A DNA stretch of 64,000 bases from an uncultured archaeon (GCA_964632315.1 CAZWEM010000015.1:1-64000); one strand, 5' to 3'. Positions 10,330 to 63,798 are shown, counted from the stretch's first letter. Made by a program: numbers and translations. The notes: a model not told the origin generated them from the sequence alone.

Positions 10330-11160
10330 ATTGAGAAAGAGATAATCTCTATAATATTATGTGCTGGAAAAGGGACTAGAATAGCCCAGAAATATACATC
10401 TATTCCTAAAACACTAATAAAAGTGAAAAATTTTGATGACAAACCTATTTTAGAAATACTTCTCGATAGATTGAATAAAATTGCTAATATCAACCAAAAT
10501 TGGATCGTGATAGGATATCTTGGACCAAAAATTAAATCCTACATTAATAGCCTAATTTCACATGACAAAATAACGAAAAATAAGATTAGAGTTATAAATG
10601 CAATTGAAGATTATGAAAAAGGTCCACTTTATTCTCTATTAAGCGTCCTATCTACTAAGGGGATCAATTCTAATCAATCTTATTTAATTATTCCTGGGGA
10701 TACTATTTTTGAAATTGAAATTCTATTAGAAGCTTCGAAAATAATAAAAAATCATAATTCAAAAAGGCCTCTTATTTTTTATCAAGCTTTAAATGATACG
10801 GAATTCAAAAAAAAAATAAAATCTGCTAAAACTGTTAGGATTATAGAAACTTCAACAAAATATGAGAATTCTAATTCTATAGAAATATTAAACAAATTTT
10901 ATGATAAAATTAAGATTTCAGATTTAAACATAAGAACATTTAAACAAGTCGTGCCAATTTTTGCATTAGATTATGATTTTTTACTACTATTAGCTAATCT
11001 TGCGCCAAAATTAAATACGAATACAATATACGAAGCACTTAATGTGATTAAAAAAGATTATCAAATCCAAGCATATAAAATTGAGACGAGTGGGAAATTC
11101 TTTGATATAGATACTGAAACTGATTTAAAGAATTTAAATAAAAAAAAAAGTGGACAATAG
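10330..11160 (+). CDS. nucleotidyltransferase (NTP_transferase family)
   Basis: IILCAGKGTRI..PKTL, C-terminal DIDTETDL. Start is either ATG 10297 (overlapping map) or ATT 10330. Confidence 0.8.
   Translation: MEKEIISIILCAGKGTRIAQKYTSIPKTLIKVKNFDDKPILEILLDRLNKIANINQNWIVIGYLGPKIKSYINSLISHDKITKNKIRVINAIEDYEKGPLYSLLSVLSTKGINSNQSYLIIPGDTIFEIEILLEASKIIKNHNSKRPLIFYQALNDTEFKKKIKSAKTVRIIETSTKYENSNSIEILNKFYDKIKISDLNIRTFKQVVPIFALDYDFLLLLANLAPKLNTNTIYEALNVIKKDYQIQAYKIETSGKFFDIDTETDLKNLNKKKSGQ
11140..11149 (-). terminator. oligo-T terminator of the candidate ncRNA
   Basis: T10 run on the minus strand 1 nt after the terminal helix. Confidence 0.55.
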
Positions 11161-11603
11161 TAGCTCCGAAATCATAGTTTTTTTGTGTCTACGGAACTAC
11201 TCTAAACCCCATCGAAGCATATATTAGAATTGGCTCCTATTGAAATGTTCTATCCCATTGTAAAAAAGTACAATGATTTGTTTGTCTCGTGTATCAAAAA
11301 TATACCTACATCAACAAGAGCTCGAGTATTACTGCCTCTATTTTGGATGGTTTTTTGTTTACCTTTAGTTTCTTTAAATGTATATTAATCTATAACCTGT
11401 AAACCTTTATAGAAACTACTTCAAGTTATAACTAAATGGATAATTCACTTGATATTGAATATAAAATAACATTTGGGTTCTAGGCAACGTTGTTTATAAA
11501 AAAAATATCCCGGCTTCAATCAAAAAAATGATCGCAACTTAATCGTTGTATAAACCGTATGATTGTTTTCCTAAACCAATGCAAAGACAATTACTATTGT
11601 CCA
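11151..11603 (-). ncRNA. candidate large structured non-coding RNA, family unrecognised (~453 nt)
   Basis: 12-bp terminal complementarity 11151-11162/11592-11603; at least 8 internal helices whose G-U pairs favour the minus strand; upstream TATA box, downstream T-tract; no ORF >=60 aa. Confidence 0.7.
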
Positions 11604-11625
11604 AATACTATTATACCCATTAGCC

Positions 11626-11640
11626 TATTTAAATGTTTTT
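11626..11640 (-). promoter_or_regulatory. BRE/TATA promoter of the candidate ncRNA
   Basis: Minus-strand AAAAACA-TTTAAATA ends 22 nt upstream of the predicted 5' end (11603), matching archaeal spacing. Confidence 0.6.
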
Positions 11641-11733
11641 ATTAAATAGTAAAATCTATTTCCAATATTCACAATAATAGCAAGCATTTTTTTGAAATAA
11701 TATAAATATTGGTGATAATATTATTAATAAAGT

Positions 11734-12132
11734 ATGTTTAATAGTGGAGAAATAGCCATTAAAATCGATCTTTTTGGAATTGGCTCGGTGAAGGCAATAA
11801 TTCATAGACATTTAAGTCCTTTAAGTGCAGATGCAATTCTAGATAAAATGCCTTTTATAATGCGAGGACGCTTTAATTTTGGTTCGAAAGATTATTGGTC
11901 ACTTCCGGGGATAGGAATTTTAAAAGGATTGAACACTAAATCAACGAGGACAGTAAAAAAAGGAGATATTATTTATAATCCTAAAAGTGATGAATTAGTT
12001 GTCCTTTTGGAGGATCGCGAAATGCCAAATAAGGTGAATTTAATAGGACAGATTACTAAAAATCTTGATTTATTTTTGCAGGCTAGAAGTGGACTTAATA
12101 CAAAATTTACTCGAATAAGATCAAAAAAGTAA
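11734..12132 (+). CDS. cyclophilin-like fold protein (TM1367/DUF369-like)
   Basis: RHLSPLSADAILDKMPF, VKKGDIIYNP, VNLIGQI. Confidence 0.7.
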   Translation: MFNSGEIAIKIDLFGIGSVKAIIHRHLSPLSADAILDKMPFIMRGRFNFGSKDYWSLPGIGILKGLNTKSTRTVKKGDIIYNPKSDELVVLLEDREMPNKVNLIGQITKNLDLFLQARSGLNTKFTRIRSKK

Positions 12133-12141
12133 GAAAGGATT

Positions 12142-12957
12142 ATGACGGTTTCAAGCAAATTGACATTTGTGTTCACATTTTTTTATATAGCAGTAATTAT
12201 ATATCTCCTCTTATTTCTTACTATTCCTGAATTTCAAAATGCAATTATTCAATCAAGGGAACAAATCGCAAACCTTACACAAGGTTCAAATTACTTTATT
12301 ACTGTGATAATTTCTATTTTTATCTGTTTCATTGGAAATGCGAGTATTGGTTTTCCAATACCATATCCATTTGTTTTGTTTTCATTTTCCCAATCAATAT
12401 TTACTAGATATGTATTATTAGGCTTGCCTGTTGAGATGATACTGATTAATGGCTATTTTTGGTTAGAATTAAGTGGAATCATTATATCTGGGGGTTTAGG
12501 AAGCATTTTAGGAGAACTTGTAAGTGTTATCGTAGGGGTTGGAGCTAAAAAAGTAGCGGAGAAAACAGATTCTCAAGCTTTCCAAAATGTTAAGGGATTT
12601 GGGAGAATTGTTTTAGATCATCCAAAAAGCATGTATTTTTTCATCTTTTTAGCAGCAGCTTTACCTATTCCTGATGATCCTATATGGATTGCTTTGGGAA
12701 TGTCTGATAAAAGGGTAAATTACTTAAAATGTGTGATATGGGGCTGGTTAGGTAAAAACATCACAACTCTTTTTTATGTAACTCTCCCAATATTTATCAT
12801 ATTGGGATATCGAGCTTCTGGAGTTGAAGTTAATGATATTACTAGTGTTATAACTGAATCTATAATGCTCTTAGTTACCCTAACTATGATGTTCTTCATC
12901 CTAAGCTTCAATTGGGACAAATTTATAGATCAGAGACAATCGGAAAAGCATAATTAA
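12142..12957 (+). CDS. DedA/VTT-domain membrane protein
   Basis: GNASIGFPIPY, GLGSILGELVS, FLAAALPIPDDPIWIALG, GK motif; multiple TM segments. Confidence 0.75.
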   Translation: MTVSSKLTFVFTFFYIAVIIYLLLFLTIPEFQNAIIQSREQIANLTQGSNYFITVIISIFICFIGNASIGFPIPYPFVLFSFSQSIFTRYVLLGLPVEMILINGYFWLELSGIIISGGLGSILGELVSVIVGVGAKKVAEKTDSQAFQNVKGFGRIVLDHPKSMYFFIFLAAALPIPDDPIWIALGMSDKRVNYLKCVIWGWLGKNITTLFYVTLPIFIILGYRASGVEVNDITSVITESIMLLVTLTMMFFILSFNWDKFIDQRQSEKHN

Positions 12958-13118
12958 CTATTATTTTTCAAGCAATTCTTACAAACAAAGACTGTTTTCT
13001 TCTTGTTTTTTGAATTCTCATCATAATAGATTTGCTTATAAATATAGTTATTGCATAGAGCACAAACTTGTTCTGTTCTATTTTCAGCTAAAAGTGGTCC
13101 TAACTTATCAAATGTCAT
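12954..13118 (-). CDS. small Cys4 zinc-finger protein (54 aa)
   Basis: MTFDKLGPLLAENRTEQVCALCNNYIYKQIYYDENSKNKKKTVFVCKNCLKNNS; 15 nt downstream of the Alba-like gene; not in ORF track. Confidence 0.7.
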   Translation of the reverse strand: MTFDKLGPLLAENRTEQVCALCNNYIYKQIYYDENSKNKKKTVFVCKNCLKNNS

Positions 13119-13133
13119 AATTATGATTAGATT

Positions 13134-13445
13134 TTAAATATTAGATTTTGAGAGTGTGATTGTAATTTTTGAAATCAAATCTTTTTGATTTTTTTTACTC
13201 CTATAATTCCTTCTGTTATTTCTTCTATTAAAATAAGGGCGACTTCCTAAAGAGACTTCTGCGATTTCAACACCAGGATACATTCGACTCTTTAGGATCT
13301 CCGCGACTTCCACTGCAGTTGAAATTTCATTTCCCTCTCCTTTTATAAATAATGATTTAGATCCTCCTGAAAATGCAAAAATAGCATCCTTTATTGTTTT
13401 TTCCATATCAGAACGATTTTTTATTATAAATGTTTCGTTAGTCAT
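13134..13445 (-). CDS. Alba-fold nucleic-acid-binding protein, divergent
   Basis: LFIKGEGNEISTAVEVAEILK...VEIAEVSLGS...ISKITITLSK follows the Alba pattern. Confidence 0.75.
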   Translation of the reverse strand: MTNETFIIKNRSDMEKTIKDAIFAFSGGSKSLFIKGEGNEISTAVEVAEILKSRMYPGVEIAEVSLGSRPYFNRRNNRRNYRSKKNQKDLISKITITLSKSNI

Positions 13446-13575
13446 CGGGTTGATGTAACCTTGATTAATAAATGAAAAAGAAGTCTAAGTATCTAATATA
13501 ATACAAGCAATATAAAACTTATTTAATGAAAATTCAAGTCCTTTAAATTTGGTTCCGGAAATAAAGTTTAAATAT

Positions 13576-14820
13576 TTAATTATTCTTATCAAGTTCAAAA
13601 CAAGCTTTAATATTGAGAGCTTCTAAAACCTTGTTGTATTCATAACTTTTAATTTCGAAGTGTTCTAGGGTTTTTCTCTCATTTGTATCCAAGAAATCGT
13701 AATAAGGATAAATTTTCCCTATTTTTTCTGAAAATTCTTTCATTATTTTAGCATATAACTCATTAGGTTTTGATAAAATACGCTTGATATGCTTTGAATA
13801 TTTGTTTCTTTTCTTTTCAAACTTTTTAATGTCACCTTTTTCTAGCAAATCTCTTAAAATTCCTTCAATTTTTTTAATTTTTTGTTCAATTCGCTCTCTA
13901 AATTTCGGGATCTTAAAGCTTTCCTTGAAGAGTTCAGGATCCCACTCGTAAAGAAATTTTTCATCATCGCCAAAACCGGCTTCATTCTTTGCTATAAAAG
14001 TATCATCTTTTGCTATTAGGATAAGACCATAATTTCTTTGTAAAAATGCCAATCGTTTTTTCAATATACCTTTATCAATATAATCTATCGCTTTTAGAAT
14101 TCTTGGCATATTTTTCTTAATGTCTTCAATAACTCTAAATCCCTCATTGAGAATATCTTCATGTTCCTTATCAACTTTTAATTCAATGTATCCAACAGGA
14201 GACCACGTTCCTCTTTGGGGATCTAACAATCTCAAAGCAGCTAAACCTAAATTAAAATCTCTAGATCTTAATTTACAATGATTGAAAATTAAACCAATCG
14301 CATAAGGATTGGGTATTTGATAACCTAATTGAGTTCGATGATCGATATCTGAAAATCTAAAGGGAAATCCAGGATGGGTGTGCCACCAGCCTATAATGAA
14401 ATCATTCTTTTCATCTCTAATGGAACGCTCATAAACTGATTCATCAATTTGGGCCATATCAACGTATTGTTTATTTTCATACGTCACCCCCGCACGGTTT
14501 CCTACCACCATCGGAATTGCATCCTTAATCACAACCGTTTTTCCATCCTCAATAGACCCAATAAGAATACCATAAACTTCTCGCCAATCATTTTCATCCA
14601 TCTCATCACTTGCATATCTCATTGCATATCCAATAATTCTTTCATATGCTTTATATTTTAGAATAGCTGGTGTTTTCATTAGTTCCTTACTCAATTTTGA
14701 AGGCTTTCGAATTTCGATATTATTAGTTAGCTCAACATCATTTTTTTCTTCTTTCTCTTTTAATTTATTGCGGTTCTCTGATTTTTTGTTTTCACTTGTA
14801 TTCATGGTATCTTTTGTCAT
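13576..14820 (-). CDS. JAMM/MPN+ metalloprotease (Rpn11/CSN5-like) with helical C-terminus
   Basis: EVYGILIG plus GWWHTHPGFPFRFSDID (H-x-H-x7-S-x2-D). Confidence 0.85.
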   Translation of the reverse strand: MTKDTMNTSENKKSENRNKLKEKEEKNDVELTNNIEIRKPSKLSKELMKTPAILKYKAYERIIGYAMRYASDEMDENDWREVYGILIGSIEDGKTVVIKDAIPMVVGNRAGVTYENKQYVDMAQIDESVYERSIRDEKNDFIIGWWHTHPGFPFRFSDIDHRTQLGYQIPNPYAIGLIFNHCKLRSRDFNLGLAALRLLDPQRGTWSPVGYIELKVDKEHEDILNEGFRVIEDIKKNMPRILKAIDYIDKGILKKRLAFLQRNYGLILIAKDDTFIAKNEAGFGDDEKFLYEWDPELFKESFKIPKFRERIEQKIKKIEGILRDLLEKGDIKKFEKKRNKYSKHIKRILSKPNELYAKIMKEFSEKIGKIYPYYDFLDTNERKTLEHFEIKSYEYNKVLEALNIKACFELDKNN

Positions 14821-14925
14821 CTCAGCATCATCTAAACTGCAAATTTAACAAATTAATTATAGAGTGAATTATTTTTATTTTTTTATAGTTTTTTTAATAT
14901 ATATGATTATTGATTTTATTGAAAA

Positions 14926-15480
14926 ATGAAAATTATTGGTTTTTGTGGGCTACCTGGAGCTGGTAAAACTACCGCAATAGGAGCAGTAAAAGATCTCGGG
15001 AAAGTCATTACAATGGGAGACGTAATTAGAAATGAGTTACTGAAACTGAATATAAAACCCTCTGATGACAACTTAGGAGATATGGCAAAAAAACTCCGCA
15101 ATGAGGGAGGTGAAGGAATTATTGCTGAAAAATGTATTGAACTCATAGAAAAGTTAGACCAAAGTGAAATTATTTTTATTGATGGGATAAGATCTAAAGC
15201 AGAAGTCAAAGTTTTTAGAAAGAAATGGAAATTTCCCCTCATAGCAATCGAAATTAACCAAAAATTGCGGTATAAAAGAATAGCTGACAGGGCGAGAACA
15301 GATGACTCAAGAGATTTAACAGATATTAAACAGAGAGATTTAAGAGAAATTAGATTTGGTTTAGAAGAGGTAATCAAAAACGCAGATTTTCACATTTATA
15401 ATGAAGGTAGTGTTGAGGATATGAAAGAAAAAACCAGAATCATTGTATTGAAGATTTTAAACTCCTTTTTTGACACATAA
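14926..15480 (+). CDS. P-loop nucleotide kinase, UPF0200/dephospho-CoA kinase-like
   Basis: GLPGAGKT, MGDVIR, IDGIRS, RDLRE..FGL. Confidence 0.8.
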   Translation: MKIIGFCGLPGAGKTTAIGAVKDLGKVITMGDVIRNELLKLNIKPSDDNLGDMAKKLRNEGGEGIIAEKCIELIEKLDQSEIIFIDGIRSKAEVKVFRKKWKFPLIAIEINQKLRYKRIADRARTDDSRDLTDIKQRDLREIRFGLEEVIKNADFHIYNEGSVEDMKEKTRIIVLKILNSFFDT

Positions 15481-15485
15481 TATGA

Positions 15486-16394
15486 TTATTCATATTTTAA
15501 ATACTGAGCAATTGCTTTAGCCAAAGATACTTTTGCAACTTCATTGTCAATAGAATCTGTTCCTATAATCTCATCTGCGCCAGCATTTAAAATTCTATAG
15601 GCTGCTTGTTCTAATAATAATGCATGCGTAGCAACAGCATAAATTTTATTAGCCCCACTCTCTTTCGCGATTTTTATTGCATTTGCCATTGTCCCTCCTG
15701 TAGCAATTATATCGTCAGCAATTATCACATTTCTGTTCTTTAAACTTAAACTTCCTTTCATAGTGATTTCTCCCGTTTTTACATCCCTTTTTTTTTCAAA
15801 ATAATCTACAGGAATTTCTTCTCCAAAATATCTTGCAAAAGCTTCAGATCTTTGAACTGCACCCTTATCTGGTGAGACTACTACTATATTTTGTGTCCCA
15901 AGAGATCTAATGTGATCAGCGAGAAGCCCCATTGAATTTATATTAACTGCTTTGCACGATATCTCTTCCAGAACCTCTGGATTATGAACATCGACCGTAT
16001 AAAATTCGTCAATGTTTAATGTATTGATTAACTTTAGTATATTTCTGGCAAAACTACATTCTCCAGGTCTAAATATTTTATCTTGGCGAGCATATGCAAG
16101 GTATGGGACTATTACAATAACCCTCTCTGCCCCCATCCTTTTTACCGCTTCAATCATCATGATCAATTCTAAAATACGAGCATTTTGATCCGCTTTAGCG
16201 CTTGGAGCTGTAGATTGAATAATAATGACTTCTTTCCCTTCAAAAAGAGTTTCATCTTCAATATTAATTCTTAAATAATTTTCACCATCGGGGAAAATTT
16301 TTGTTTCAGTATTTACAGATTCCAATTCTAATTCCACCTTAACTCTCATTCCCAACATTTGCGATGCTGGACCAATTACCAAAATTCTTTTCAT
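15486..16394 (-). CDS. prs: ribose-phosphate pyrophosphokinase
   Basis: FPDGE, PYLAYARQDK, SPDKGA, DDIIATGGT, THA. Confidence 0.96.
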   Translation of the reverse strand: MKRILVIGPASQMLGMRVKVELELESVNTETKIFPDGENYLRINIEDETLFEGKEVIIIQSTAPSAKADQNARILELIMMIEAVKRMGAERVIVIVPYLAYARQDKIFRPGECSFARNILKLINTLNIDEFYTVDVHNPEVLEEISCKAVNINSMGLLADHIRSLGTQNIVVVSPDKGAVQRSEAFARYFGEEIPVDYFEKKRDVKTGEITMKGSLSLKNRNVIIADDIIATGGTMANAIKIAKESGANKIYAVATHALLLEQAAYRILNAGADEIIGTDSIDNEVAKVSLAKAIAQYLKYE

Positions 16395-16431
16395 TTTTTC
16401 ACCTTTCTAAGACATAATTTTTTTCTTTCGT

Positions 16432-17154: not shown

Positions 17155-17163
17155 CCATTCTCA

Positions 17164-17439
17164 TTATTTTTCATGTTGCATCACGTGCTTCTCTAAATCT
17201 TCTTCCCTTTCGAGATTATTTTCAGATTTATTATAATTTCTGATAATATCAACGATATGACTTGAAATCTTTAAATGCTCATCAACACATGAACTCTTTT
17301 CTAAAAAATCCTCACCCTTTCTGATTGCTACAAGATTCTCGTTGATCTTGATTAACTCAGTAGCCATTATACTATTAATGTAAATTAAATCAGAAATCAT
17401 TGATTTAAGATAAAGCATCAATTTTAGTTGATCTGACAT
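17164..17439 (-). CDS. hypothetical helical protein
   Basis: Clean 91-aa ORF co-oriented with neighbours. Confidence 0.65.
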   Translation of the reverse strand: MSDQLKLMLYLKSMISDLIYINSIMATELIKINENLVAIRKGEDFLEKSSCVDEHLKISSHIVDIIRNYNKSENNLEREEDLEKHVMQHEK

Positions 17440-17493
17440 AAGGAAATTAATAAATATATCAATTAAACTTTTATTTACTTTTTAAAGAGGTTT

Positions 17494-19758: not shown

Positions 19759-19760
19759 AT

Positions 19761-21131: not shown

Positions 21132-22415
21132 ATGCATACTCAACGAATTTTTATATATGAACACATTTCGGGGGGTGGATTTAACAATAGGGAGATTCCA
21201 CTTTCACTTTTTTCTGAAGGGTTTGGCATGTTAAGGACTATTATAGAGGATTTCAAGGCACTTGACTTTGAAGTTAAAACTATGTTAGATTATAGAATAT
21301 TGAAAATGTCAAATCTCCTAAATTGTGATTACATTATGGAAGTAAAAAGAGGAATGACTATTATCCAAGAATTTAAATCTTTAATTAAAGATTGCCAATA
21401 TGTATTCATTATTGCTCCCGAATTTTCAAAAGTTTTATACAAGTTCACTAAAGTTGCTGAAGATATGGGAAAAACACTTCTTAGCATGAATTCATCTCCA
21501 ATACTTTTAGGGAGTTCCAAATTTCAAACATATAACTTCTTTAAGAATTCAGGAATACTTACTCCAAAGACTTTTTATATTAAGAATTTTAATTATAAAA
21601 TTAGTATGGAGGATTTACGAAAGTCTTATCACCTAATACACTCACCAGCTATATTAAAACCGGAAGATGGTGTCGGTGCAGAATCAGTATATTTAATTAG
21701 AAATGAAAGAGACCTTGAAAATATTATTAGTAAGGAAAAGCAATATCTGGATGGTAATCGAGATTACGTTCTTCAAGAATACATAAATGGTACAGATTTA
21801 AGTGCTTCCATCATAAAACAGGAAAATCAATTAATAATTCTTTCTATAAATTCCCAAAAAATTAAACTCATCAAAAATAAGATTAACTATTTAGGAGGAA
21901 TGACTCCAGCAGAGAATTCTGATCATATCAAAAAAGAAATCATTGAATTAACTGAAAATCTTGATTTAACCAAATTTAAAGGATACTTCGGAATTGATTT
22001 TATTAGAATGGCTGATGGTAAGATATACTTAATAGAAATTAATCCTAGACTAACTACTTCTTATCTTGGGGTTAGAAACGTTTCTAAAGCAAATCCAATG
22101 CTGTTATTAGTGTATCCAGATGCAAATCCAGATGAGATTATTGATTCAAGCTATAAATATTGTTCGGAATATTATCATATGAAACTAAAATATAATGGCG
22201 TAGATGATCCACTTGAATTATGGGGAGATATATTTAATAGTATTCACGAGATCATTACTCCACCATTACCTTTAAATCTCAAATTTCAAGAAAATAAAAT
22301 TTTCACATGTTTTGTTTCAATAAAAGGGAAAAATATCAAACAGATTCAAAAGAGAAAAAGATCACTGTTGCATCAATTAAAAAAACTTAATTTTCAATTA
22401 TATAGCCAGGGTTAA
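21132..22415 (+). CDS. ATP-grasp ligase, MfnD (tyramine-glutamate ligase)-like
   Basis: YEHISGGG..EGFGML, IIAPE, KPEDGVG, QEYING, GYFGIDF, IEINPRLTTSY. Confidence 0.8.
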   Translation: MHTQRIFIYEHISGGGFNNREIPLSLFSEGFGMLRTIIEDFKALDFEVKTMLDYRILKMSNLLNCDYIMEVKRGMTIIQEFKSLIKDCQYVFIIAPEFSKVLYKFTKVAEDMGKTLLSMNSSPILLGSSKFQTYNFFKNSGILTPKTFYIKNFNYKISMEDLRKSYHLIHSPAILKPEDGVGAESVYLIRNERDLENIISKEKQYLDGNRDYVLQEYINGTDLSASIIKQENQLIILSINSQKIKLIKNKINYLGGMTPAENSDHIKKEIIELTENLDLTKFKGYFGIDFIRMADGKIYLIEINPRLTTSYLGVRNVSKANPMLLLVYPDANPDEIIDSSYKYCSEYYHMKLKYNGVDDPLELWGDIFNSIHEIITPPLPLNLKFQENKIFTCFVSIKGKNIKQIQKRKRSLLHQLKKLNFQLYSQG

Positions 22416-23297
22416 AATTACTGAAAATCCCCCATAATGTAATAAGAGTGATAATATTAACGCATTTTCAATTTTTAATTGTTTATAGGTGCTAATAGAA
22501 TAAGTTAATATCCATAATGACCATGCTTGAAGGAGAATCATGATAATATTGTCCAAAATACTTATTGATGGTAATTCAATTAGGTTTAAAACTCTAAAAG
22601 CGTAATGAATTATGAGAAAAAAGTCTGAGGGAATAAATATAAAAGCAAATGTATTAAAGAATTCTTTTGCATTGTTTTTATTTTTAAAAACTAATCGGAT
22701 AAGGCCTTCCACTATGAAGAAGTACACTAAGTAGTTCAATATGAACAAAATTGCCCCTAAGATATTCGTAAACGGTGCTTGAATATTTTCATTATTCGGG
22801 AAAGAACTAAATAACAAAAAAAATGGGAACAAATTAGTTAAATAGCAAAAAACTGCACCAATTACTAAAATCAAAAGGGAAATCATCAAGGGAATAAAAT
22901 TTAAGGAATTAGAGTTACTAATAAATCTCTTTGGAGTAAGATACATTAAAGCTTTCAAAATAGGAGAATTAAATTCTTTGCTTGAAATATCCCTTGTGAT
23001 ATTTATTATATTTTCCTTCAATGAATTATACGCGAGTTGACCAAGATCGGTAAGATAATATTTTTTATCACTTTTTTGTTCTATCAGTTGAGACAAAGCA
23101 TCTAGATGATGATAAATAGTGCCAGTACTTACCTTCAATTCCTTTTTAAGAATTGTAAAGGAAGAAAAACCGTTGTCACCAATTATTTCTATCATTCTTC
23201 TTCTAATTTTATGCCCCAAAGCGTAATAAAAGTTAGACTCTAATTCTTTCTCTTTACTGGATTGATTATCTTCAGTATTATTTTCTTCCCTACTAAT
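22398..23297 (-). CDS. ArsR-like winged HTH fused to a multi-TM domain
   Basis: ALGHKIRRRMI..STGTIYHHLDAL..YYLTDLG followed by about 5 TM segments; start ATT 23297 or TTG 23219. Confidence 0.8.
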   Translation of the reverse strand: MSREENNTEDNQSSKEKELESNFYYALGHKIRRRMIEIIGDNGFSSFTILKKELKVSTGTIYHHLDALSQLIEQKSDKKYYLTDLGQLAYNSLKENIINITRDISSKEFNSPILKALMYLTPKRFISNSNSLNFIPLMISLLILVIGAVFCYLTNLFPFFLLFSSFPNNENIQAPFTNILGAILFILNYLVYFFIVEGLIRLVFKNKNNAKEFFNTFAFIFIPSDFFLIIHYAFRVLNLIELPSISILDNIIMILLQAWSLWILTYSISTYKQLKIENALILSLLLHYGGFSVILTLAI

Positions 23298-25202: not shown

Positions 25203-25331
25203 AACATACAACTTTTGTTCTTTTTGTCTTTTTTCTGGTCGATCTTTACGATGAAATAATAAATATATAAATATGCTCAATATAATATATCAACTATCAA
25301 ATAATTAAACATGATTTAACGGGTTTTCAAG

Positions 25332-25850
25332 ATTTCTGAAACGTACAAATTCAAAATTACACTTTTTGGCGCTGGAGGAGTGGGAAAAACATCTTTATTG
25401 ATAAGATACATAAAAGATTACTTTAATCCGGACTTAAAACAAACGATTGGTTCCAATTTTCTAATAAAAGATGTTGAACTCGGTGATATTAACGTGCGCC
25501 TTCTAATTTGGGATATCGGTGGACAAGAACAATTTGCTAAACTTAGAACAATTTATTTTAAAGGAAGTAACGGTGCTCTAGGAGTTTATGATTTAACTGA
25601 ACCTCAATCTTTATTAAAATTACCTGGATGGGTTAGTAGTATAAAAAAATCGGTTAAGAAAACCATTCCAATGGTGATTCTTGGGAATAAGAATGACTTA
25701 GATAGACAAGTAGAGAAATCCGAAGCTCAAGACTTATCTAGTCGATTAAATTGTGAATATCTTGAAACTTCCGCTAAGACTGGACAAAATGTCGAAAAAG
25801 CATTTGAATACATAGCTAAGGCTTGCTTAGATCAAGTTCTACAATCATAA
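25332..25850 (+). CDS. Rab-like small GTPase
   Basis: FKITLFGAGGVGKT (G1), TIG (G2), IWDIGGQ (G3), GNKND (G4), ETSAK (G5); G1 begins upstream of GTG 25380, so ATT 25332 is inferred as start. Confidence 0.93.
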   Translation: MSETYKFKITLFGAGGVGKTSLLIRYIKDYFNPDLKQTIGSNFLIKDVELGDINVRLLIWDIGGQEQFAKLRTIYFKGSNGALGVYDLTEPQSLLKLPGWVSSIKKSVKKTIPMVILGNKNDLDRQVEKSEAQDLSSRLNCEYLETSAKTGQNVEKAFEYIAKACLDQVLQS

Positions 25851-42931: not shown

Positions 42932-44056
42932 ATGAAATTTGTGAAATATGGAATTATTGGAAGTGGTGGAGCGTGGGCATTTCATAGTGCTGGATGTAAG
43001 AATAATCCAAAAATTAAGTTCAATTCTGTATTTGACATTAATGAAAAAGCTGCTAAACGTGCCGCAAGAATTAACAAAATGCAGTATTTTACAGATCTCA
43101 ATTCCTTCTTGAAAAGTGATATCGATGCCGTTATTGTAATGGTGCCTCATTTTTTGCATGAAGAAATGGTCATAGCAGCAGCAGAAGCAGGAAAACATGT
43201 TTTGTGTGAAAAACCCATGGCTACTACCCTTGAAGGATGCGATGCAATGATCGATGCTACTAAGAAGGCAGGGGTTAAATTTATGATTGCTGAAAACCAT
43301 AGATTTTTACCAGCTCACAAATATATAAAGGAAGCTGTGCAATCTGGACTCATAGGAAATGTTTTTTTACTAAGATCATACGAAGGGGTAAATGAAATAC
43401 CTGGATTGATGAGAGAGGGATTTTGGAAAGGAGACCCAATTAAAGCTGGTGGTGGTGCGTTAATGGATATGGGTGCCCACAAATTTGCTACAATGAATTG
43501 GATTTTAAATGATGAGCTAGAATTTGCGTATGCTTGGCTAACAAAACAATGCACGAGTTTAAAAGAAAAAGCGGAAGATAATGCTATGGTCCATCTCCAG
43601 TACAAAAATGGGGCGATTGCAGAAACTATAGTTAGTTTTTCAGTTATTTCTCCTCCCACAAATGCACTTGAACTTTATGGCACATTAGGATCTATTATTG
43701 AAAATCATGAGTGGAATAATCCGGTTAAAATTTATTCAAAAGATGGTAGATTGGGAGAAAATTCTGGTAAGTGGTATGAGCCAAAAATAGAACACGGGCC
43801 ATTTCCTACATATTATGAAATTTCAGCAAGAATAGAAGATAACCACTTTACTGAATGTATAATTAATGATACAGAACCAGATTTTACTCCAGAACAATCT
43901 AAAAAAGCAATAGAAGCAATTTTACTTTCGTATTTATCAGCAAGAAAAGATTCTAAAGCATATATTGACGAACTCTATGAAATATATAAAAATAAAGGTA
44001 CTAGAAGCATTATTGAAGGTTTAGAAAACCATGTTAAAGTAAATAAATGCGTATAA
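42932..44056 (+). CDS. Gfo/Idh/MocA family oxidoreductase
   Basis: GIIGSG, HVLCEKP, GGGALMDMGAH. Confidence 0.92.
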   Translation: MKFVKYGIIGSGGAWAFHSAGCKNNPKIKFNSVFDINEKAAKRAARINKMQYFTDLNSFLKSDIDAVIVMVPHFLHEEMVIAAAEAGKHVLCEKPMATTLEGCDAMIDATKKAGVKFMIAENHRFLPAHKYIKEAVQSGLIGNVFLLRSYEGVNEIPGLMREGFWKGDPIKAGGGALMDMGAHKFATMNWILNDELEFAYAWLTKQCTSLKEKAEDNAMVHLQYKNGAIAETIVSFSVISPPTNALELYGTLGSIIENHEWNNPVKIYSKDGRLGENSGKWYEPKIEHGPFPTYYEISARIEDNHFTECIINDTEPDFTPEQSKKAIEAILLSYLSARKDSKAYIDELYEIYKNKGTRSIIEGLENHVKVNKCV

Positions 44057-44235
44057 TGTGTCTTACTCTTACAAAAATATCCTATATTTCTAAGAGAAAA
44101 AAAATAAAAATCAACTCTCCTCACTTTCACTTAAATATAGTTTTTAAGGATAATAGAAAACCAGCCCCGAGTTTTTTTTTAAATAATTTACTTGTCTTTC
44201 ATTCTATAAATCGAATTTCATCGAAGTGAACACAT

Positions 44236-44565
44236 ATTTCTAAAGGATTTGTAAAGAACGAGATTTATACTGGTATCGTTGAAAAAGAAAAATCACTTGA
44301 AAATGTAGTTCAATTAGAAAATGGTGAAATTCGATTAAAATTTAATTCTTCAGAATCAACTATAAGTGAAAACTCAGTAGTTAAAAAATGTGATGAAATT
44401 AAGAAAGATTACATGCTAATGATCAATGATGTTCACGAATTGCTTCAAAATTATGAGAAATTATCTAATGAAGAGAAATTGGAATATTGTAACAGTGAAC
44501 GATACCTTATGAAGATGTACTTAAGGCATGCCTTAATTAAAATTAATAAATGCTTTCCAGAATGA
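44236..44565 (+). CDS. hypothetical protein (109 aa, inferred ATT start)
   Basis: Stop-free frame filling the intergenic gap: (M)SKGFVKNEIYTGIVEKE...YLRHALIKINKCFPE. Confidence 0.55.
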   Translation: MSKGFVKNEIYTGIVEKEKSLENVVQLENGEIRLKFNSSESTISENSVVKKCDEIKKDYMLMINDVHELLQNYEKLSNEEKLEYCNSERYLMKMYLRHALIKINKCFPE

Positions 44566-46268: not shown

Positions 46269-46270
46269 GT

Positions 46271-53141: not shown

Positions 53142-53423
53142 TTATGGATAATCTGGTTTGTTAGACACTAGAGTCGTTGTTTCTTCGATCCATTTACTTA
53201 TTTCTTCATCCATTCGGATATAGGCAATTATCTTGTCTAATTCCTGTTTTTTAGTAAAGGAACATTCAACAACAACATCCCATCCTCCATAAACAGGAGT
53301 CGCATAAGTTACCATCCAATCTTCATCATCTTCAACTGATTTTAAGTTTTTGAGCTTATTGACGACTTTCCATTCAAATCCAATTTTCTTCAGTCGAATA
53401 AAGATATATCCTCGGAAATAGAT
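53142..53423 (-). CDS. Lrp/AsnC ligand-binding (RAM) domain protein, inferred ATC start
   Basis: (M)YFRGYIFI..GFEWKVV..L..YATPVYGGWDVVVE..ELDKII..IR..IEETTTLV; not in ORF track. Confidence 0.75.
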   Translation of the reverse strand: MYFRGYIFIRLKKIGFEWKVVNKLKNLKSVEDDEDWMVTYATPVYGGWDVVVECSFTKKQELDKIIAYIRMDEEISKWIEETTTLVSNKPDYP

Positions 53424-55305: not shown

Positions 55306-55392
55306 AATAATTTTAAAATTAAAAGAAAATACTATAAAGTTCGTTTTCTTTAAAATCATAATTATCTTTAGATCATACATGTTTCTATAATA

Positions 55393-56493: not shown

Positions 56494-56497
56494 TACA

Positions 56498-57340: not shown

Positions 57341-57348
57341 TAGAATAA

Positions 57349-58185: not shown

Positions 58186-58271
58186 TTATCATACACGATT
58201 TAAAAATATAAAAATTCTACTTATAGAACATTAAAAAATGATCAAAATCAATTAAATAAAAAAAAGAATAC

Positions 58272-58571
58272 TTAACTAAGAAAACCAACAAACGTCGCAA
58301 GTAGGACGAAAATTCCACCAATTAAGCTAGCAAATACAATCAGTAGAATTCCTAATATTGCAAGAAAGAAAGGTGTACCGCGAATAGGTTTTATCCCTAA
58401 TACAATTGTAATTATGGCAAAAACGAATATCAAAATCGTTCCTATCACTCCAAATCCATATGACATTAAACCATTCCCCGTTAAAATCAAAATAGCCTCA
58501 ATGATTCCAATAATCCCTCCTATTATTGCTATTACTCTCATGCCTTTATCTGATTCTTCAACCTTACTCAT
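58272..58571 (-). CDS. small membrane protein
   Basis: Gly-rich hydrophobic segments. Confidence 0.7.
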   Translation of the reverse strand: MSKVEESDKGMRVIAIIGGIIGIIEAILILTGNGLMSYGFGVIGTILIFVFAIITIVLGIKPIRGTPFFLAILGILLIVFASLIGGIFVLLATFVGFLS

Positions 58572-58665
58572 AAAGATTACATCCTTAATGTGGGTTTAAA
58601 CTTTCTTAAGTAAAAATAAATGAATCAACTATAAAAATTTATACTCTAAAAAAAAAGAAGAGGAT

Positions 58666-59310
58666 TTAGATCATATGTAGAGATCCGAATATGATCCCTA
58701 ATCCAAGATCGATAATAGCTGCAATTATCAAAAAATTGCGCTGCTTTTTAGGCTTCCAGTAGTAAGAATAGGCAGAAACCACGAAAAAAGGTATATATAC
58801 AAATATGAACACTGTAATCGCATTCCACCACCACCACACCCATACAAACGATCTTGTAAAGATAAGAAAAATTTCTATTATAGAAGCCACCAAAGCATTC
58901 CCAATTCCAATCGCAAGGGGTTTTGGAACTGAATATCTCCCTATTTTAAACATTGGTTCTTTAGGATCTTCTGGTAAGAGTTTACTTTGTGCGACTCCAG
59001 CTATAGAAAACATCAGGTTTAGTTCTATTCCGAGTCCAATTAAGATTAAATACGACGTTCCAGCTGGAACGGTCCATAATGCATGACCTAATACAGATTG
59101 GACGACCCCATTAATGATCTCAACAAACCAATGTATCATGTATAATGTTAAGCCAGCAACGATAGTGTTATAATTCTTTTTATGATATTCATTAAAATAA
59201 ATATATAGAACGACAACTAGCATGAAGATCACGCCAAGATCGAAATAATCACCTGATCGAAGAATATCTAAAGCTTGTTGAGTCGCTTCGGGGTTATGTA
59301 GTAATATCAT
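58666..59310 (-). CDS. hypothetical membrane protein
   Basis: About 6 TM segments, WFVEIIN and ALWT motifs. Confidence 0.75.
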   Translation of the reverse strand: MILLHNPEATQQALDILRSGDYFDLGVIFMLVVVLYIYFNEYHKKNYNTIVAGLTLYMIHWFVEIINGVVQSVLGHALWTVPAGTSYLILIGLGIELNLMFSIAGVAQSKLLPEDPKEPMFKIGRYSVPKPLAIGIGNALVASIIEIFLIFTRSFVWVWWWWNAITVFIFVYIPFFVVSAYSYYWKPKKQRNFLIIAAIIDLGLGIIFGSLHMI

Positions 59311-59419
59311 TTATTTATTCTCTTTTAAGTTAATATTAAATTTAAAGATATGAAATTATCAATATGTTTTAAAAATTAGCAAAGGCTTAAAATGAGGAGT
59401 ATTTTTTATTTGCATACTC

Positions 59420-60238
59420 ATGATTTTCAAGGAAAAATTGATTAAAAACGCTAATTCGCGAGCAATGTTGATTTTTTTAGGTTCATATCTTTTCTCAATT
59501 TGCTTAACCATACCAATTCACGAAATAGGACACGCAATAGCACTCTTAATCCTTGGGTATCCCGATATAGTGATACATGTGACCCCTTTTTATGGGACAA
59601 CAACCACAAGCGCTAGTATCGCTATGGATGATATAATTTTTATCTCCGCCGCTGGACCAGTCTTTGATTTGATTTGTGCAAGTATGCTGTTAATAGGGCT
59701 TTGGCATAGAAGAAGTACGAACCTATTACCTCTATTAATGTATGGTGGAACAGCATTTCTATTAGAGGGAATTGTCATGTTTAATACATTTTTTACCCGT
59801 ACAATTTTAACCGATTGGGATGCACTTATTTTTATGGGAATCTCTCCGATCTTTGTTGCTGTTTTAACTGGGATTGTATTAATAGCAGGCGCTTTGATGG
59901 TGTATCTTATATGGCCTCTCACTGGTATTTCAGCACAAACTTCCTTTTCTAAAATACTTTATATCAATTTGGGCTACATTTTCTATGTGTTATTATCCCT
60001 TTTCTTCGCAATAGTAGTTAATCTATCTTTCCTTCCAGAAATAATGTTTTTATTAACACTTAATTCAATAGTGGCAATTTTATTCTTAATTTTAAGGATT
60101 TTTGCATATAAACCTCTTTTTCCCTTGATAGATCGATTAACCCATACGGAAGTGAGTGATCCAACAAATAATTCCGTCTGGATTCCATTATTTATGGGTG
60201 GATTTACATTTTTCTTTCTTATATTTTTTATTAATTAA
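59420..60238 (+). CDS. M50-like membrane zinc metalloprotease
   Basis: IHEIGH within TM, SAAGP, TDW. Confidence 0.75.
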   Translation: MIFKEKLIKNANSRAMLIFLGSYLFSICLTIPIHEIGHAIALLILGYPDIVIHVTPFYGTTTTSASIAMDDIIFISAAGPVFDLICASMLLIGLWHRRSTNLLPLLMYGGTAFLLEGIVMFNTFFTRTILTDWDALIFMGISPIFVAVLTGIVLIAGALMVYLIWPLTGISAQTSFSKILYINLGYIFYVLLSLFFAIVVNLSFLPEIMFLLTLNSIVAILFLILRIFAYKPLFPLIDRLTHTEVSDPTNNSVWIPLFMGGFTFFFLIFFIN

Positions 60239-60319
60239 TCATAGGACTTTATCTTTGATTTTCACTGCTAAATGCGACAGTTCCCAGATTGATTAAATGA
60301 TTATAAATGTCAAATTCAA

Positions 60320-60423
60320 TGGGAGGGGAGGGATTCGAACCCCCGACCACTTGGCCCCCAGCCAATTCGATCCAGTTTAAAGACAATAAACTGGCGTATC
60401 ATACCAAGCTAGACCACCCTCCC
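60320..60423 (-). tRNA. tRNA-Pro(GGG) with 30-nt intron at 27/28 (60366-60395)
   Basis: Acceptor stem GGGAGGG/CCCTCCC, spliced anticodon arm CTTGG-CTGGGGG-CCAAG, T loop TTCGAAT; 74 nt mature; CCA not encoded. Confidence 0.92.
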
Positions 60424-60606
60424 TTTATGGGGAACGTTAAGTAAAAAGATCTAAAACTTTAGGGATGTTCAAGATACCTTTTCTTTGAAATAAAATTGTA
60501 AATTCTATTTATTTTTATTTATCTTTTTAATTGAACTGATAATTTTTAAATGTCTTAGAGGGTTTTAATTCTTAATAGTTTTAAATATAATATATCTTGT
60601 GTTTTA

Positions 60607-60900
60607 ATGCGCTCTCGAAAACCTTATTTAATATTTTGGCCTCAATATTTCGATGCTAAAAAGACTCGTGCTGAAGGTAGACGCATACCCAAAAAGTATG
60701 CTATAGAAAAAGTAAGTGCTAAAGATCTGGTAACAGCTGCAGGTAAATTAGGTTATACAGTTCAATTGGAATCGAGTTATAAATATCCGAGGTCCTGGTG
60801 GGATGAACCTGGTAGAGTTGTTATAGAGACTAAAGGGAAGAAAAAGTCGAAGGTTTTATTGGAAGTTGCGAAAGAAGTTAAAAAACAGCAATCTAAATAA
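60607..60900 (+). CDS. srp19: signal recognition particle 19 kDa protein
   Basis: WPQYFDAKKTRAEGRRIPK, YPRSWW..GRV. Confidence 0.95.
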   Translation: MRSRKPYLIFWPQYFDAKKTRAEGRRIPKKYAIEKVSAKDLVTAAGKLGYTVQLESSYKYPRSWWDEPGRVVIETKGKKKSKVLLEVAKEVKKQQSK

Positions 60901-60917
60901 TTAAATGTAGCTTAAAT

Positions 60918-61295
60918 ATGCATGAATTCTCGTTCGCTTATCAAATCTTTAAGGTAGCAGAAGCTACGGCCATAAAGTATGGTGCTAAGAAAATTACTGA
61001 AGTTTATTTAGAAATTGGAGAACTCACTCTCATCGTTCCAGAATTGTTGAAACAATCATTCAAAATGGCAACTACGGGGTCCATTGCGGAAGGTGCTGAG
61101 TTAAAGATTGAGATATTACCCGGAAAGATAAGATGTAGGGAGTGTGATAAAGTTTCTACAGTTACTCTTACCGAAGAAGCGCAATTAACTGGACTTCAAT
61201 TATTTCAATGCAAGTATTGTAAAAGCAAAAATACTGAAATCATTGAAGGAAAAAAAGCTAACGTTAAAAATATTAAAATCCAAGAAGAAGATTAG
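60918..61295 (+). CDS. hypA: hydrogenase nickel metallochaperone HypA
   Basis: MHEFS, IGELT, two CxxC motifs, IIEGK. Confidence 0.93.
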   Translation: MHEFSFAYQIFKVAEATAIKYGAKKITEVYLEIGELTLIVPELLKQSFKMATTGSIAEGAELKIEILPGKIRCRECDKVSTVTLTEEAQLTGLQLFQCKYCKSKNTEIIEGKKANVKNIKIQEED

Positions 61296-61321
61296 AGATT
61301 TTCACTTAATTTCTTTATAAA

Positions 61322-62041
61322 ATGCCAGAAATTCAAGTACTCTGGGAAGGAAGATTAGATCTCTCTCAAATTGCATGGGGTGACTCTTCGCTTCCAGAAT
61401 TTAGATTGAATTCGAAACATGATGTTAAAATAAACAAATTTTGGATAGAACATTTAGACACACATCCAAATGATTATGATGGGACCTTACTCTACCTTTA
61501 TGATTTTATAATAGATCAAAATAGTAATTTGGTTCTAAATACTGGAACCGTCAAATTCTCCACAATCATTTACATGTCCAATTTCAATTTTAAAATCAAT
61601 AAGGGTATTGGAATGCTAGGTGTTCAATGTTTAATTTTTGACAGTAATAATAATTATTTATTAGTTGGTAGAAGATCCCATCATCAATCATACTATCCAG
61701 GAGCACTAACAATTCCAGGAGGAATGTTAGAATCCAATGATCTTAACAATCCACCTAAAATTTCATTAATGAGAGAAATTCTCGAGGAAGTGAAATTAAA
61801 TTTTAATAATCACGTTAATCTCATTGCTATTCTTTCGGGCTGGAATGGTATTTCAGTTACATTTCTCCTTTCAACGGTTATTAATGACTTTTTGGATCCT
61901 TCTAAGAATTTAGATGGAGATCAAGAGGAATGGGATGACGGACTTAATTGGATAACTATTAAAGAATTGCTTCACATGAATAATGATTCTCCAATTATGC
62001 TAGATGGTTTGCAATACTTCAAAACTAAAATAGAGTTATAA
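61322..62041 (+). CDS. NUDIX hydrolase
   Basis: PGGMLE..LMREILEEV Nudix box. Confidence 0.85.
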   Translation: MPEIQVLWEGRLDLSQIAWGDSSLPEFRLNSKHDVKINKFWIEHLDTHPNDYDGTLLYLYDFIIDQNSNLVLNTGTVKFSTIIYMSNFNFKINKGIGMLGVQCLIFDSNNNYLLVGRRSHHQSYYPGALTIPGGMLESNDLNNPPKISLMREILEEVKLNFNNHVNLIAILSGWNGISVTFLLSTVINDFLDPSKNLDGDQEEWDDGLNWITIKELLHMNNDSPIMLDGLQYFKTKIEL

Positions 62042-62089
62042 ATATTACGTGCACAATCCTATAAGGATTAAAATTATGATAATGCAAAT

Positions 62090-62470
62090 TCATTGAATTA
62101 AAATTCCATTCAAAACGCCATGCTGACCTGGGCGACTAGTTATCCTTGCTTTACCGATTTCAGTTTCGACAATAGCTCCTTTTGTTAGAATATGCCGCCT
62201 ATTAAAATCTTTTGATGCATCATTTTGTTCAAACCTCAAAATTTTCACTTTAGAGGTTTTATTCGAACTTGGATCAGTAACATTCATGAATGTAGAAGAG
62301 AATAGCTTTAACTTAAAGTTTCCCCCCATTGTTCTTTGTTTTTTCTTTTTTTCAGAACCGATCTCTGTTTCTATAGGGGCTCTTTCCAGTTCTCTTTTCC
62401 GTTTTTTACGAAAATATTTATATTTTTTTCCAGTGTATTTTCTTCTACTACGTACTTGACTTCTTGCCAT
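62090..62470 (-). CDS. rps8e: 30S ribosomal protein S8e
   Basis: RSRRKYTG, KRKREL, RTMGGN.K, ILTKGAIVETEIGKARITSRPGQHG. Confidence 0.97.
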   Translation of the reverse strand: MARSQVRSRRKYTGKKYKYFRKKRKRELERAPIETEIGSEKKKKQRTMGGNFKLKLFSSTFMNVTDPSSNKTSKVKILRFEQNDASKDFNRRHILTKGAIVETEIGKARITSRPGQHGVLNGILIQ

Positions 62471-62641
62471 AATAAAAAGACACTCGCGTGCAAAAATCTA
62501 TTATGATGGATAATAAACAATTAGTTTAAAATTTTGTGTTTGATTTACTTTCTTTATAATTTCTAAAAGTAAAATAAATATAGCACAACTTAATTTATAA
62601 TCATAATAACCTTCAAAATAAATTTTTAACTGAGAGAAAAA

Positions 62642-63280
62642 ATGGAACATATTACTAATAACTTAAAGATTGATGAAGAAGCATTAAATAATGTAATCAA
62701 ATCGAGTACAACTACCGTAGGGATAATTGTTAAGGATGGAGTGGTAGTTGGAACTGAAAGTCAAGCTACAGCAGGATATTTCGTTGCGACAAAGACAGCT
62801 CAAAAACTTTTCCAAATCAATGATTATACTTGTGCTACAATATCTGGAGGAGTAGCAGATTGCCAATATGTCATCAATCAATTGAGAGCATTTTCCCGAT
62901 TAAAGGAAGTAGAAGAAGAAAAAGTTCCTGAACCTAAATATATTGCAAGTGTAACGAGGAACATATTATTCAGCGGTCGTTCATATTACTTAGCAATGAT
63001 GATTATTGGAGGGTTCTCATTAAAAGAACAAAAAGGAAGACTATATGGTGTTGATTTGTTAGGAACTTTATTTGAAGAAGAGAACTTTATATCATTTGGA
63101 AGTGGATCTCCTTTTTCTCTTGGAGTGTTAGAATCCGATTGGAAACCGGGATTAACAAAGAATCAAGGTATAGAATTGATCAAAACAGCCATTTCAAGCT
63201 CACGGGAAAGAGATGCTGCTTCGGGATTTAACATTCAAATCTGTACTATTGATAAAAACGGATTTAATCAAGTGCAATAA
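62642..63280 (+). CDS. psmB: proteasome subunit beta
   Basis: TTTVGI..KDGVV, K33, SGGVAD, GSGS, RDAASG. Confidence 0.93.
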   Translation: MEHITNNLKIDEEALNNVIKSSTTTVGIIVKDGVVVGTESQATAGYFVATKTAQKLFQINDYTCATISGGVADCQYVINQLRAFSRLKEVEEEKVPEPKYIASVTRNILFSGRSYYLAMMIIGGFSLKEQKGRLYGVDLLGTLFEEENFISFGSGSPFSLGVLESDWKPGLTKNQGIELIKTAISSSRERDAASGFNIQICTIDKNGFNQVQ

Positions 63281-63291
63281 CTCTCTTTCTA

Positions 63292-63798
63292 CTAAGAAAT
63301 TATAATATCGATTTTTTGAACTTCATTTTCAAAATAAATAAATCCATTTATATCGTAATTTGTGGCATCAATTATTAGCCAAATTAGATTTTTAAAAGCC
63401 TTACTCGTATATTTACTTGTTTTTTCACTAAAATGATCCAGAAATGTCATATTATTTATATCCACTGAACTAGGATAGTTTCCCGATGGATGAGAATGAA
63501 AAATGCTAATTAATTGAGCTTTTTGAGTTGCGGATTGAATTTCTTCCATTATTATAGCATTTAATCTTTCCATATTTCTCATCAAGAAAGACACGGCTGA
63601 ATTTTGATCAGATGGTATACATCTAGCTTTATTACCAATGTAATGATAAGAATAGTCATTATTGCGATAAATTTCTTCAATAGAGCCAAATATGAGACCG
63701 CAACACTCGTTTGGAGATGATGAGTCAACACATGTTTTTAAATCTTCAACAATAAGAGCGTTTAAAACGCATTTAATATCTTTGAGCTTTTTAATGAT
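63292..63798 (-). CDS. JAB/MPN (Mov34, JAMM1-like) metalloprotease, inferred ATC/ATT start
   Basis: PNECCGLIFG lies in frame upstream of the ORF-track start; IFHSHPSGNYPSSVD. Confidence 0.85.
   Translation of the reverse strand: MIKKLKDIKCVLNALIVEDLKTCVDSSSPNECCGLIFGSIEEIYRNNDYSYHYIGNKARCIPSDQNSAVSFLMRNMERLNAIIMEEIQSATQKAQLISIFHSHPSGNYPSSVDINNMTFLDHFSEKTSKYTSKAFKNLIWLIIDATNYDINGFIYFENEVQKIDIIIS

Follow-up and report, generated by a model that had tools for sequence, protein, structure and literature searches.

The codons ATT, ATC and ATA (collectively ATH, or AUH in the transcript) are listed initiators of NCBI translation table 11, and the classic AUU start is that of Escherichia coli infC, which encodes initiation factor IF3 and is autoregulated via its own weak start codon. 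Here, we analyse a stretch of 64,000 nucleotides from an uncultured archaeon (GCA_964632315.1 CAZWEM010000015.1:1-64000), referred to as the window, in which five intact and conserved genes in all likelihood start at such a near-cognate codon, namely ATT in four of them and ATC in one, as judged by comparison with related genomes. What these genes share with the infC-type starts is a near-cognate AUH codon that is located at normal Shine-Dalgarno (SD) spacing, is aligned with AUG in relatives and is conserved. A further likeness is that a fidelity factor itself has a weak start codon, in this case aIF1 in five genomes of the genus, where autoregulation would be presumed. The two situations differ in extent, with a handful of AUH-started genes per bacterial genome as opposed to an estimated ~6-7% of genes, spread over ordinary gene classes, in the present lineage. 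They also differ in the fidelity factor, which is IF3 in the infC system and the eukaryote-type aIF1/eIF1 here.

Among Asgard archaea, the only mention that we found concerns the tubulin gene atubA in a metagenome-assembled genome (MAG) of Kariarchaeaceae, for which a 'rare ATT start codon' was proposed (bioRxiv 10.64898/2026.02.15.705738; also PMC13394414). Like the present cases, atubA is an Asgard gene with a deposited protein that is too short; the proposed extension begins at an ATT further upstream, the distance of which to a ribosome-binding site is plausible. It differs in being one gene, argued from structure prediction and called rare, whereas the present analysis comprises five genes, conservation across genomes, a genome-wide statistic and aIF1. 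Our literature searches revealed no systematic report of an ATT/ATC/ATA start habit.

The second system for comparison is eukaryotic near-cognate (non-AUG) initiation, the stringency of which is set by eIF1 (Asano 2014 review, PMC4705826). The likeness here is that several near-cognates appear to be accepted (AUU, AUC and AUA, with ACG and CUG enriched and AAG and AGG not), and that the lineage possesses a eukaryote-type factor set with an aIF1/eIF1 homolog as the probable gatekeeper. In contrast to eukaryotes, sites are selected by SD motifs and not by scanning and Kozak context, and AUH, not CUG, dominates.

Anatomy and conservation of the five genes

Throughout, ATG, GTG and TTG are regarded as canonical starts, and the in-frame stretch before the first canonical codon is termed the leader. 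In each of the five genes, the reading frame opens right behind an in-frame stop, 20-70 codons ahead of the first canonical codon. When 77 listed frames of the window, which correspond to ~72 likely genes, are ranked by leader length, the five genes occupy five of the top six places; this pattern exceeds chance. None of the five genes has a usable canonical codon, and starts at the downstream ones would remove the P-loop of a small GTPase, the catalytic Glu of a JAMM metalloprotease, the first strand of a small protein and the winged helix-turn-helix (wHTH) domain of a membrane protein. A preliminary description of the window, made from its sequence alone, had assigned ATT or ATC starts to six genes. 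Every coordinate in it was right on re-reading, and the assignment holds for the five genes without a usable ATG, GTG or TTG and fails for the sixth, an NTP-transferase with a canonical start.

For comparison across genomes, orthologs were searched in 30 relatives, 18 of them from the same genus, and the 5' ends were read at the best loci; domains were called with Pfam profiles at E <= 0.01. The alignment of ATT/ATC with ATG in orthologs, proposed in the preliminary description as a check, was obtained for all five genes. In four genes, ATT or ATC is kept at the aligned codon in 5-16 independent assemblies, with an SD-like motif 6-8 nt upstream, and the only codons seen at the aligned start position in orthologs are ATT, ATC, ATA and ATG.

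The Ras/Rab-type GTPase matches Pfam Ras (PF00071) with E = 1.2e-47 over profile positions 1-160 of 162, position 1 being seven codons after the ATT. Its first canonical codon is GTG 25380, within the P-loop GAGGVGKT (fitting GxxxxGK[ST]). The four closest orthologs (G007, G001, G016 and G006; 83-86% identity) are likewise without a canonical codon before the P-loop and have ATT four codons before the F-K-F-K-I strand and a stop 3-7 codons upstream, bringing the genomes with ATT to five in total. In more distant orthologs, an ATG or TTG is found one to three codons at most from the ATT position. Between ATT and GTG, 26 synonymous versus 11 non-synonymous codon differences were counted; the corresponding values for the codons of the small protein before its first ATG were 71 and 87. 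Judged by these substitutions, the region from the near-cognate codon to the first canonical one is evolving like a coding region. A two-codon mini-open reading frame (ORF), ATG-ATT-TAA at 25311-25319, lies in frame directly upstream of the GTPase frame; it is probably incidental.

The JAMM metalloprotease was recognised by PF14464 (Prok-JAB, E = 1e-8, above the curated cut-off), and the Glu of PNECCG, HSHPSG and SSVD could be read, in keeping with a Glu plus an HxH...S..D metal site. No canonical codon occurs before GTG 63594, 68 codons into the gene and past the catalytic Glu of PNECCG. ATT 63795 aligns codon-for-codon with the ATG of the orthologs in G001, G006 and G016 (M-K-I-Q-N-D-I-K versus I-K-K-L-K-D-I-K in the window). 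The upstream neighbour of this gene, at 63817-64512 on the minus strand (L013 2023-2718), encodes 231 amino acids, ends in ...LNAALTLI and shares its reading frame with the JAMM gene. The spacer between the two consists of two stops and six codons, and the C-terminal motif of the neighbour is kept beside the JAMM gene across the genus.

In the small protein, the first ATG is found 38 codons into the 95-codon frame, and the ATC is preceded by a 6-nt SD run at spacer 6. The codon two before a conserved Y-R-G-Y is ATC or ATT in 14 loci and ATG in three, with GGTG 6-8 nt upstream; in eight loci, no canonical codon is present upstream of YRGY, the GTG of the SD being out of frame or separated by a stop. 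An indel in a T4 run that would bring the GTG of GGTGA in frame was considered and rejected, given that seven other loci with different sequences have the same out-of-frame or stop-separated arrangement. The name Lrp-domain protein, under which this gene had been introduced, comes solely from a language-model look-alike; by look-alike score, the closest cluster of the atlas is one called AsnC/Lrp ligand-binding (0.96), with a PF01037 cluster at 0.86, and no Pfam match, including PF01037, was obtained at the threshold used.

ORF 44236 encodes a genus-specific protein, the first ATG of which occurs 59 codons after the ATT, corresponding to 61 codons into the 111-codon frame (ORF 44230). A frame of ~110 codons is open in 16/16 genus orthologs, with ATT (14) or ATA (2) directly before a conserved S-K-G, and the first in-frame canonical codon is located 52-90 codons downstream in 13 of the 16. 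A conserved TATA-like 'tttaaata' is present ~45 nt upstream in all of them. Selenocysteine insertion or read-through across the TGA, joining ORF 44047-44229 with ORF 44230-44565, was rejected, as an in-frame TAA is present in the orthologs a few codons further upstream, together with the promoter-like box.

The fifth gene encodes an ArsR-like wHTH with a membrane domain; its first canonical codon in the window is TTG 23219, at the edge of the wHTH domain. At a position 19-22 codons before F-Y-Y-A-L, ATT is present in 16/18 genus loci, ATC in one and ATG in one, and AGGGA(T/G) is found 6 nt before the start, with flanking residues being poorly conserved. In eight loci, no canonical codon is reached until 31-96 codons past FYYAL, which is inside or after the HTH.

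For the NTP-transferase, ATT 10330 is not required because the in-frame canonical ATG 10297 is available. This ATT sits 1 nt past the stop of the upstream map gene and has no SD ahead of it. An in-frame ATG 21 codons before a conserved Cys, with no intervening stop, is found in 14/17 genus orthologs, and in the remaining three a canonical ATG is located closer to the domain. The ATG is contained in the codons of L-D-G, the conserved C-terminal residues encoded by the methionine-aminopeptidase-like map gene, and both the overlap and the frame are kept in the same 14 of 17 orthologs.

Further cases were sought among the other long-leader genes of the window (586-918, 17167-17484, 21084, 42875, 60559, 13137, 45234, 41685 and 39292), and none was found. 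In window genes with leaders of 12-19 codons, the Pfam domain, where present, begins after the canonical start. The coordinates and start signals of the six genes are compiled in Table 1.

Table 1. Coordinates and start signals of the six genes for which ATT or ATC starts had been considered
Gene product	Coordinates	Strand	Start codon	Upstream signals
Ras/Rab-type small GTPase	25332..25850	+	ATT 25332	in-frame TAA 25317; SD-like GGGT 25321-25324, 7 nt upstream
JAMM/MPN+ (Prok-JAB) metalloprotease	63292..63795	-	ATT 63795 (probable); ATC 63798 (alternative)	TAA 63801-63799; SD-like AAGGGAT 63807-63801
Small AsnC/Lrp-ligand-domain-like protein (~93 aa; look-alike label)	53142..53423	-	ATC 53423	SD GGTGA 53434-53430, 6 nt upstream; TGA of GGTGA is the in-frame stop
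ORF 44236, genus-specific 109-aa protein	44236..44565	+	ATT 44236	SD-like AGTGA 44225-44229, 6 nt upstream; TGA of AGTGA is the in-frame stop
wHTH (ArsR-like) + membrane-domain protein	22398..23297	-	ATT 23297-23295	overlaps upstream TAA 23299-23297 as TAATT; SD-like GGGGAT 23311-23306
NTP-transferase	10297..11160	+	ATG 10297	frame open from 10285; 32-nt overlap with end of upstream map gene

Genome-wide Shine-Dalgarno test and aIF1

The source MAG comprises 4.45 Mb in 119 contigs with ~31% G+C, with the window being the first 64 kb of contig C15. Protein matches of the window are 'Promethearchaeota / Lokiarchaeota archaeon' records, indicating an Asgard archaeon of the Loki type, and 72 Ras-family matches were counted in the genome. 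The AT-rich composition of the window's contig is that of the organism. Independent sequencing runs from salt marsh also contain this stretch, with no RNA run among those listed. The bin has a completeness score of 99.5% and a contamination estimate of ~8.6%. Twenty-three contigs (C36, C74, C78, C80, C82 and 18 more) have a G+C content of 37-70%, versus ~31-34% elsewhere; these are probably foreign to the bin and, unless removed, skew genome-wide codon statistics.

A genome-wide count, suggested along with the ortholog comparison, was carried out as an SD-anchored test. Because a cruder version was confounded by the G+C-rich foreign contigs and by spurious frames, the test was redone on the AT-rich contigs only, with a coding-score and overlap filter, leaving 3692 likely genes. 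Since the 16S rRNA was not found in the source assembly, the SD template was built empirically from 1254 clear ATG starts. It is GGAGGTGA-like, with GTGA mostly ending at a distance of 6 nt from the start, and the 5-mers with the strongest enrichment ahead of ATG starts are AGTGA and GGTGA. The statement that GGTGA-type motifs precede ordinary ATG starts in the window was borne out at ATG 26465 (7-nt SD run) and ATG 16394 (6-nt run). All leader codons at least four codons ahead of the first canonical codon were scored, with other codons and other reading frames of the same genome serving as internal controls.

An SD run of at least 5 nt at a spacer of 5-7 was found ahead of 21/1025 in-frame leader ATT, 16/833 ATA and 7/307 ATC codons. 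Taken together, ATH codons yielded 44/2165 as compared to 57/12102 for all other leader codons, corresponding to an odds ratio of 4.4 (p = 7e-12). The effect peaks at spacer 6, where 14.3 per 1000 in-frame ATH codons are preceded by such a run; the corresponding values are 1.8 for the other codons and only 0-2.3 when ATH is out of frame. For first canonical starts, the maximum is at spacer 6-7, coinciding with the ATH peak. The test thus agrees with initiation at ATT and ATC. The relaxed third-position start selection that had been proposed is supported for ATT, ATC and ATA, although the relaxation is not purely one of the third position, given that ACG (5/61) and CTG (4/71) leader codons are likewise SD-enriched at spacer 5-7. 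AAG and AGG are not enriched. The accepted near-cognate set may, hence, be wider than ATH.

The frequency of such starts was additionally estimated from a sample chosen independently of the SD. This sample comprised 98 genes in which no more than 40 codons separate a Walker A motif from the upstream stop. Six of them are without a canonical codon at least four codons before the motif, and all six carry ATT, ATC or ATA there. Among strict small GTPases, 3/29 lack such a canonical codon. In the window itself, the preliminary figure of roughly 1 in 11 genes (6 of 66) had to be corrected to 5 of ~72, or ~1 in 14. We conclude that ATT, ATC and ATA very probably serve as starts in ~6-7% of genes (~1 in 15), in the order of 100-250 genes, which is a rough value from small samples.

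Outside the window, further convincing ATH starts were seen on several contigs. ATC precedes a second Rab-like GTPase of C15 itself (C15:83008 region; listed as C15 82993) and an IscU-like protein of C4, ATT precedes a Rab of C53 and a GPN-type P-loop protein of C3, and ATA precedes a SucC-like ATP-grasp protein of C48; candidates are also present on C1, C2 and other contigs. The residues right behind the ATH codon match the textbook N-termini of the respective families in the IscU-like and SucC-like proteins, a Rab and a GPN-type P-loop protein, with YSEKVMEHFKNPRN after the ATC in the IscU-like case and RLLEYESKKIF after the ATA in the SucC-like one.

The gene for SUI1/aIF1 was located in 14/18 genus genomes. 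In five of them (G016, G006, G003, G014 and G009; loci L099, L100, L102, L107 and L108), TGA opens the frame, ATT is positioned six codons before the first zinc-knuckle Cys, and no canonical codon occurs until 9-87 codons past that Cys. In other genera, aIF1 has ATG or TTG eight codons before the Cys, or ATA in one case. The AUU-initiated aIF1 suggests a feedback loop like that of bacterial infC. In the source assembly, which scores 99.5% complete, neither the Pfam model nor tblastn with a genus ortholog retrieved aIF1; in view of the 119 contigs, its absence is not claimed. For the initiator tRNA, aragorn found 11 tRNAs in the source assembly, none with anticodon CAT, where introns may hide the gene, and a search by an anticodon-stem pattern gave nothing useful in the source or in 20 genus genomes.

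Alternative explanations

Several observations speak against near-cognate initiation at individual loci. The SD-like motifs are imperfect at the GTPase (GGGT), the JAMM (AAGGGAT) and the wHTH (GGGGAT) genes. The ATT of the JAMM gene was found in the source genome alone, and all 15 of 15 orthologs have a canonical start. The GTG within the SD falls in frame at some orthologous loci of the small protein and at one aIF1 paralogue, rendering these loci ambiguous. Ahead of ORF 44236 and its orthologs (window 44226-44229; L052-L066), the motif (A/G/T)TGA reads ATGA in 13 cases, TTGA in three and GTGA in one, the latter being the window. It contains a canonical start that is shifted by one base from the gene's frame, overlaps the in-frame TGA and begins a frame of only 5-10 codons; an SD variant and a conserved, tiny overlapping ORF are both conceivable.

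According to one alternative explanation, initiation takes place at the canonical triplet inside the SD-like motif (GGTGA, GATGA, GTTGA) or at a tiny upstream ORF and is followed by a frameshift or by re-initiation without a start codon. The invariably out-of-frame canonical start in the ORF 44236 family is in its favour, as are the TAATT overlap at the wHTH gene in the window and the mini-ORF ahead of the GTPase. Yet neither the overlap nor the mini-ORF is conserved in orthologs, the frame of the SD-embedded triplet varies among orthologs whereas the ATT or ATC 6-8 nt downstream is fixed, the genome-wide ATH peak is at the SD-to-ATG spacing, and no slippery site is evident; we regard this explanation as highly unlikely. 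Loss of a former ATG, be it through assembly errors or in recently decayed pseudogenes, would be easiest to accept for the JAMM gene, the ATT of which is one base away from the orthologs' ATG and comes from a single MAG, in a bin with the contamination and the G+C-rich foreign contigs mentioned above. Four of the five cases, however, recur at the same codon in 5-16 independently assembled genomes with intact, conserved frames, the window's contig is AT-rich like the organism, and the 168 codons and the catalytic motifs of the JAMM gene are all intact. For the set of genes, this explanation is accordingly very improbable; for the JAMM gene specifically, an assembly error or a pseudogene is unlikely without being negligible, and a very recent loss of the start codon is conceivable there.

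Finally, translation might begin at the first downstream ATG, GTG or TTG, which would make the upstream open frame an untranslated leader. Several JGI and Logan gene calls do use downstream starts (public proteins VGKTS... and LFGPGG...), and the TTG of the window wHTH gene is situated just ahead of the first helix. The cost of such starts would, however, be half of the P-loop, the JAMM catalytic Glu, 38 of the small protein's 95 residues and the entire HTH in eight wHTH orthologs. Moreover, the substitutions in the supposed leader are synonymous-biased in the GTPase, and it is stop-free in up to 16 genomes of an AT-rich lineage, which leaves downstream initiation hardly credible. Initiation of the five genes at ATT or ATC remains, for these reasons, the reading that we adopt.

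Proposed mechanism, public annotation and implications

Gene anatomy, codon conservation, interchange with ATG, SD spacing and frame specificity were observed directly, and we infer decoding of the near-cognate codons as methionine by the initiator tRNA, a lowered efficiency and autoregulation of aIF1. In the mechanism that we propose, the 16S 3' tail would pair with a GGAGGTGA-type SD and thereby place the small subunit with its P site ~6 nt downstream. The initiator Met-tRNA (anticodon CAU) would read AUU, AUC or AUA by the first two bases, with the mismatch at the third position being tolerated; decoding of ACG and CUG would involve a mismatch at another codon position. Weak or limiting start-codon proofreading most likely permits near-cognate starts, and their acceptance would be set by the rejection of mismatched duplexes by aIF1. 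The habit would be genus-wide and would concern the above percentage of genes, with ATA included and ACG and CTG probably so. AUU-initiated aIF1 would rise as stringency falls, by which an intermediate stringency would be stabilised, as for IF3 via infC.

Existing GenBank entries already contain the start proposed here for the GTPase. The coding sequences annotated in GCA_054385975.1, GCA_054383875.1, GCA_054386915.1 and GCA_004524705.1 begin at ATT read as Met, and in GCA_004524705.1 this ATT is the codon homologous to window 25332. They have the same ATT-as-Met start as the present gene and differ in being single annotations without a stated generalisation. The systematic misannotation that had been suspected is, therefore, pipeline-dependent: NCBI records start the homologous GTPase at ATT, and several JGI and Logan calls have their N-terminus within the P-loop or shortly ahead of it. 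One GTPase family has been deposited with seven N-termini (P0009, P0011, P0013, P0018 and P0047 versus P0007 and P0010). Some of its calls, from JGI, Logan and one from NCBI, begin in or just before the P-loop, such as a protein of 156 aa from VGKTS, and the NCBI proteins P0007 and P0010 have Met at the ATT.

If the estimate of ~6-7% is true, gene finders restricted to ATG, GTG and TTG systematically truncate protein catalogues of this lineage, so that P-loops, catalytic residues and whole small genes are lost. The truncation would hit eukaryotic-signature proteins that are now being expressed and solved. As a remedy, ATT, ATC and ATA starts behind an SD could be accepted where homology supports them, as NCBI records appear to do.

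We tentatively extend these results to a broader proposal, which we consider plausible but somewhat short of probable. According to this proposal, relaxed start selection would be a fixed and regulated trait of the lineage, affecting several per cent of genes, with an excess of regulators (small GTPases and transcription factors, for instance), and the expression of these genes would be tuned by AUU, AUC and AUA (as well as ACG and CUG) starts. AUU-initiated aIF1 would form a homeostatic loop, convergent with infC and prefiguring the autoregulation of eIF1 and eukaryotic near-cognate initiation. Should the estimate of ~6-7% hold, the start-codon stringency of aIF1/eIF1 would be a variable trait, open to study in a prokaryotic setting, and the AUU-initiated aIF1 would represent a second, independent invention of the infC feedback logic.

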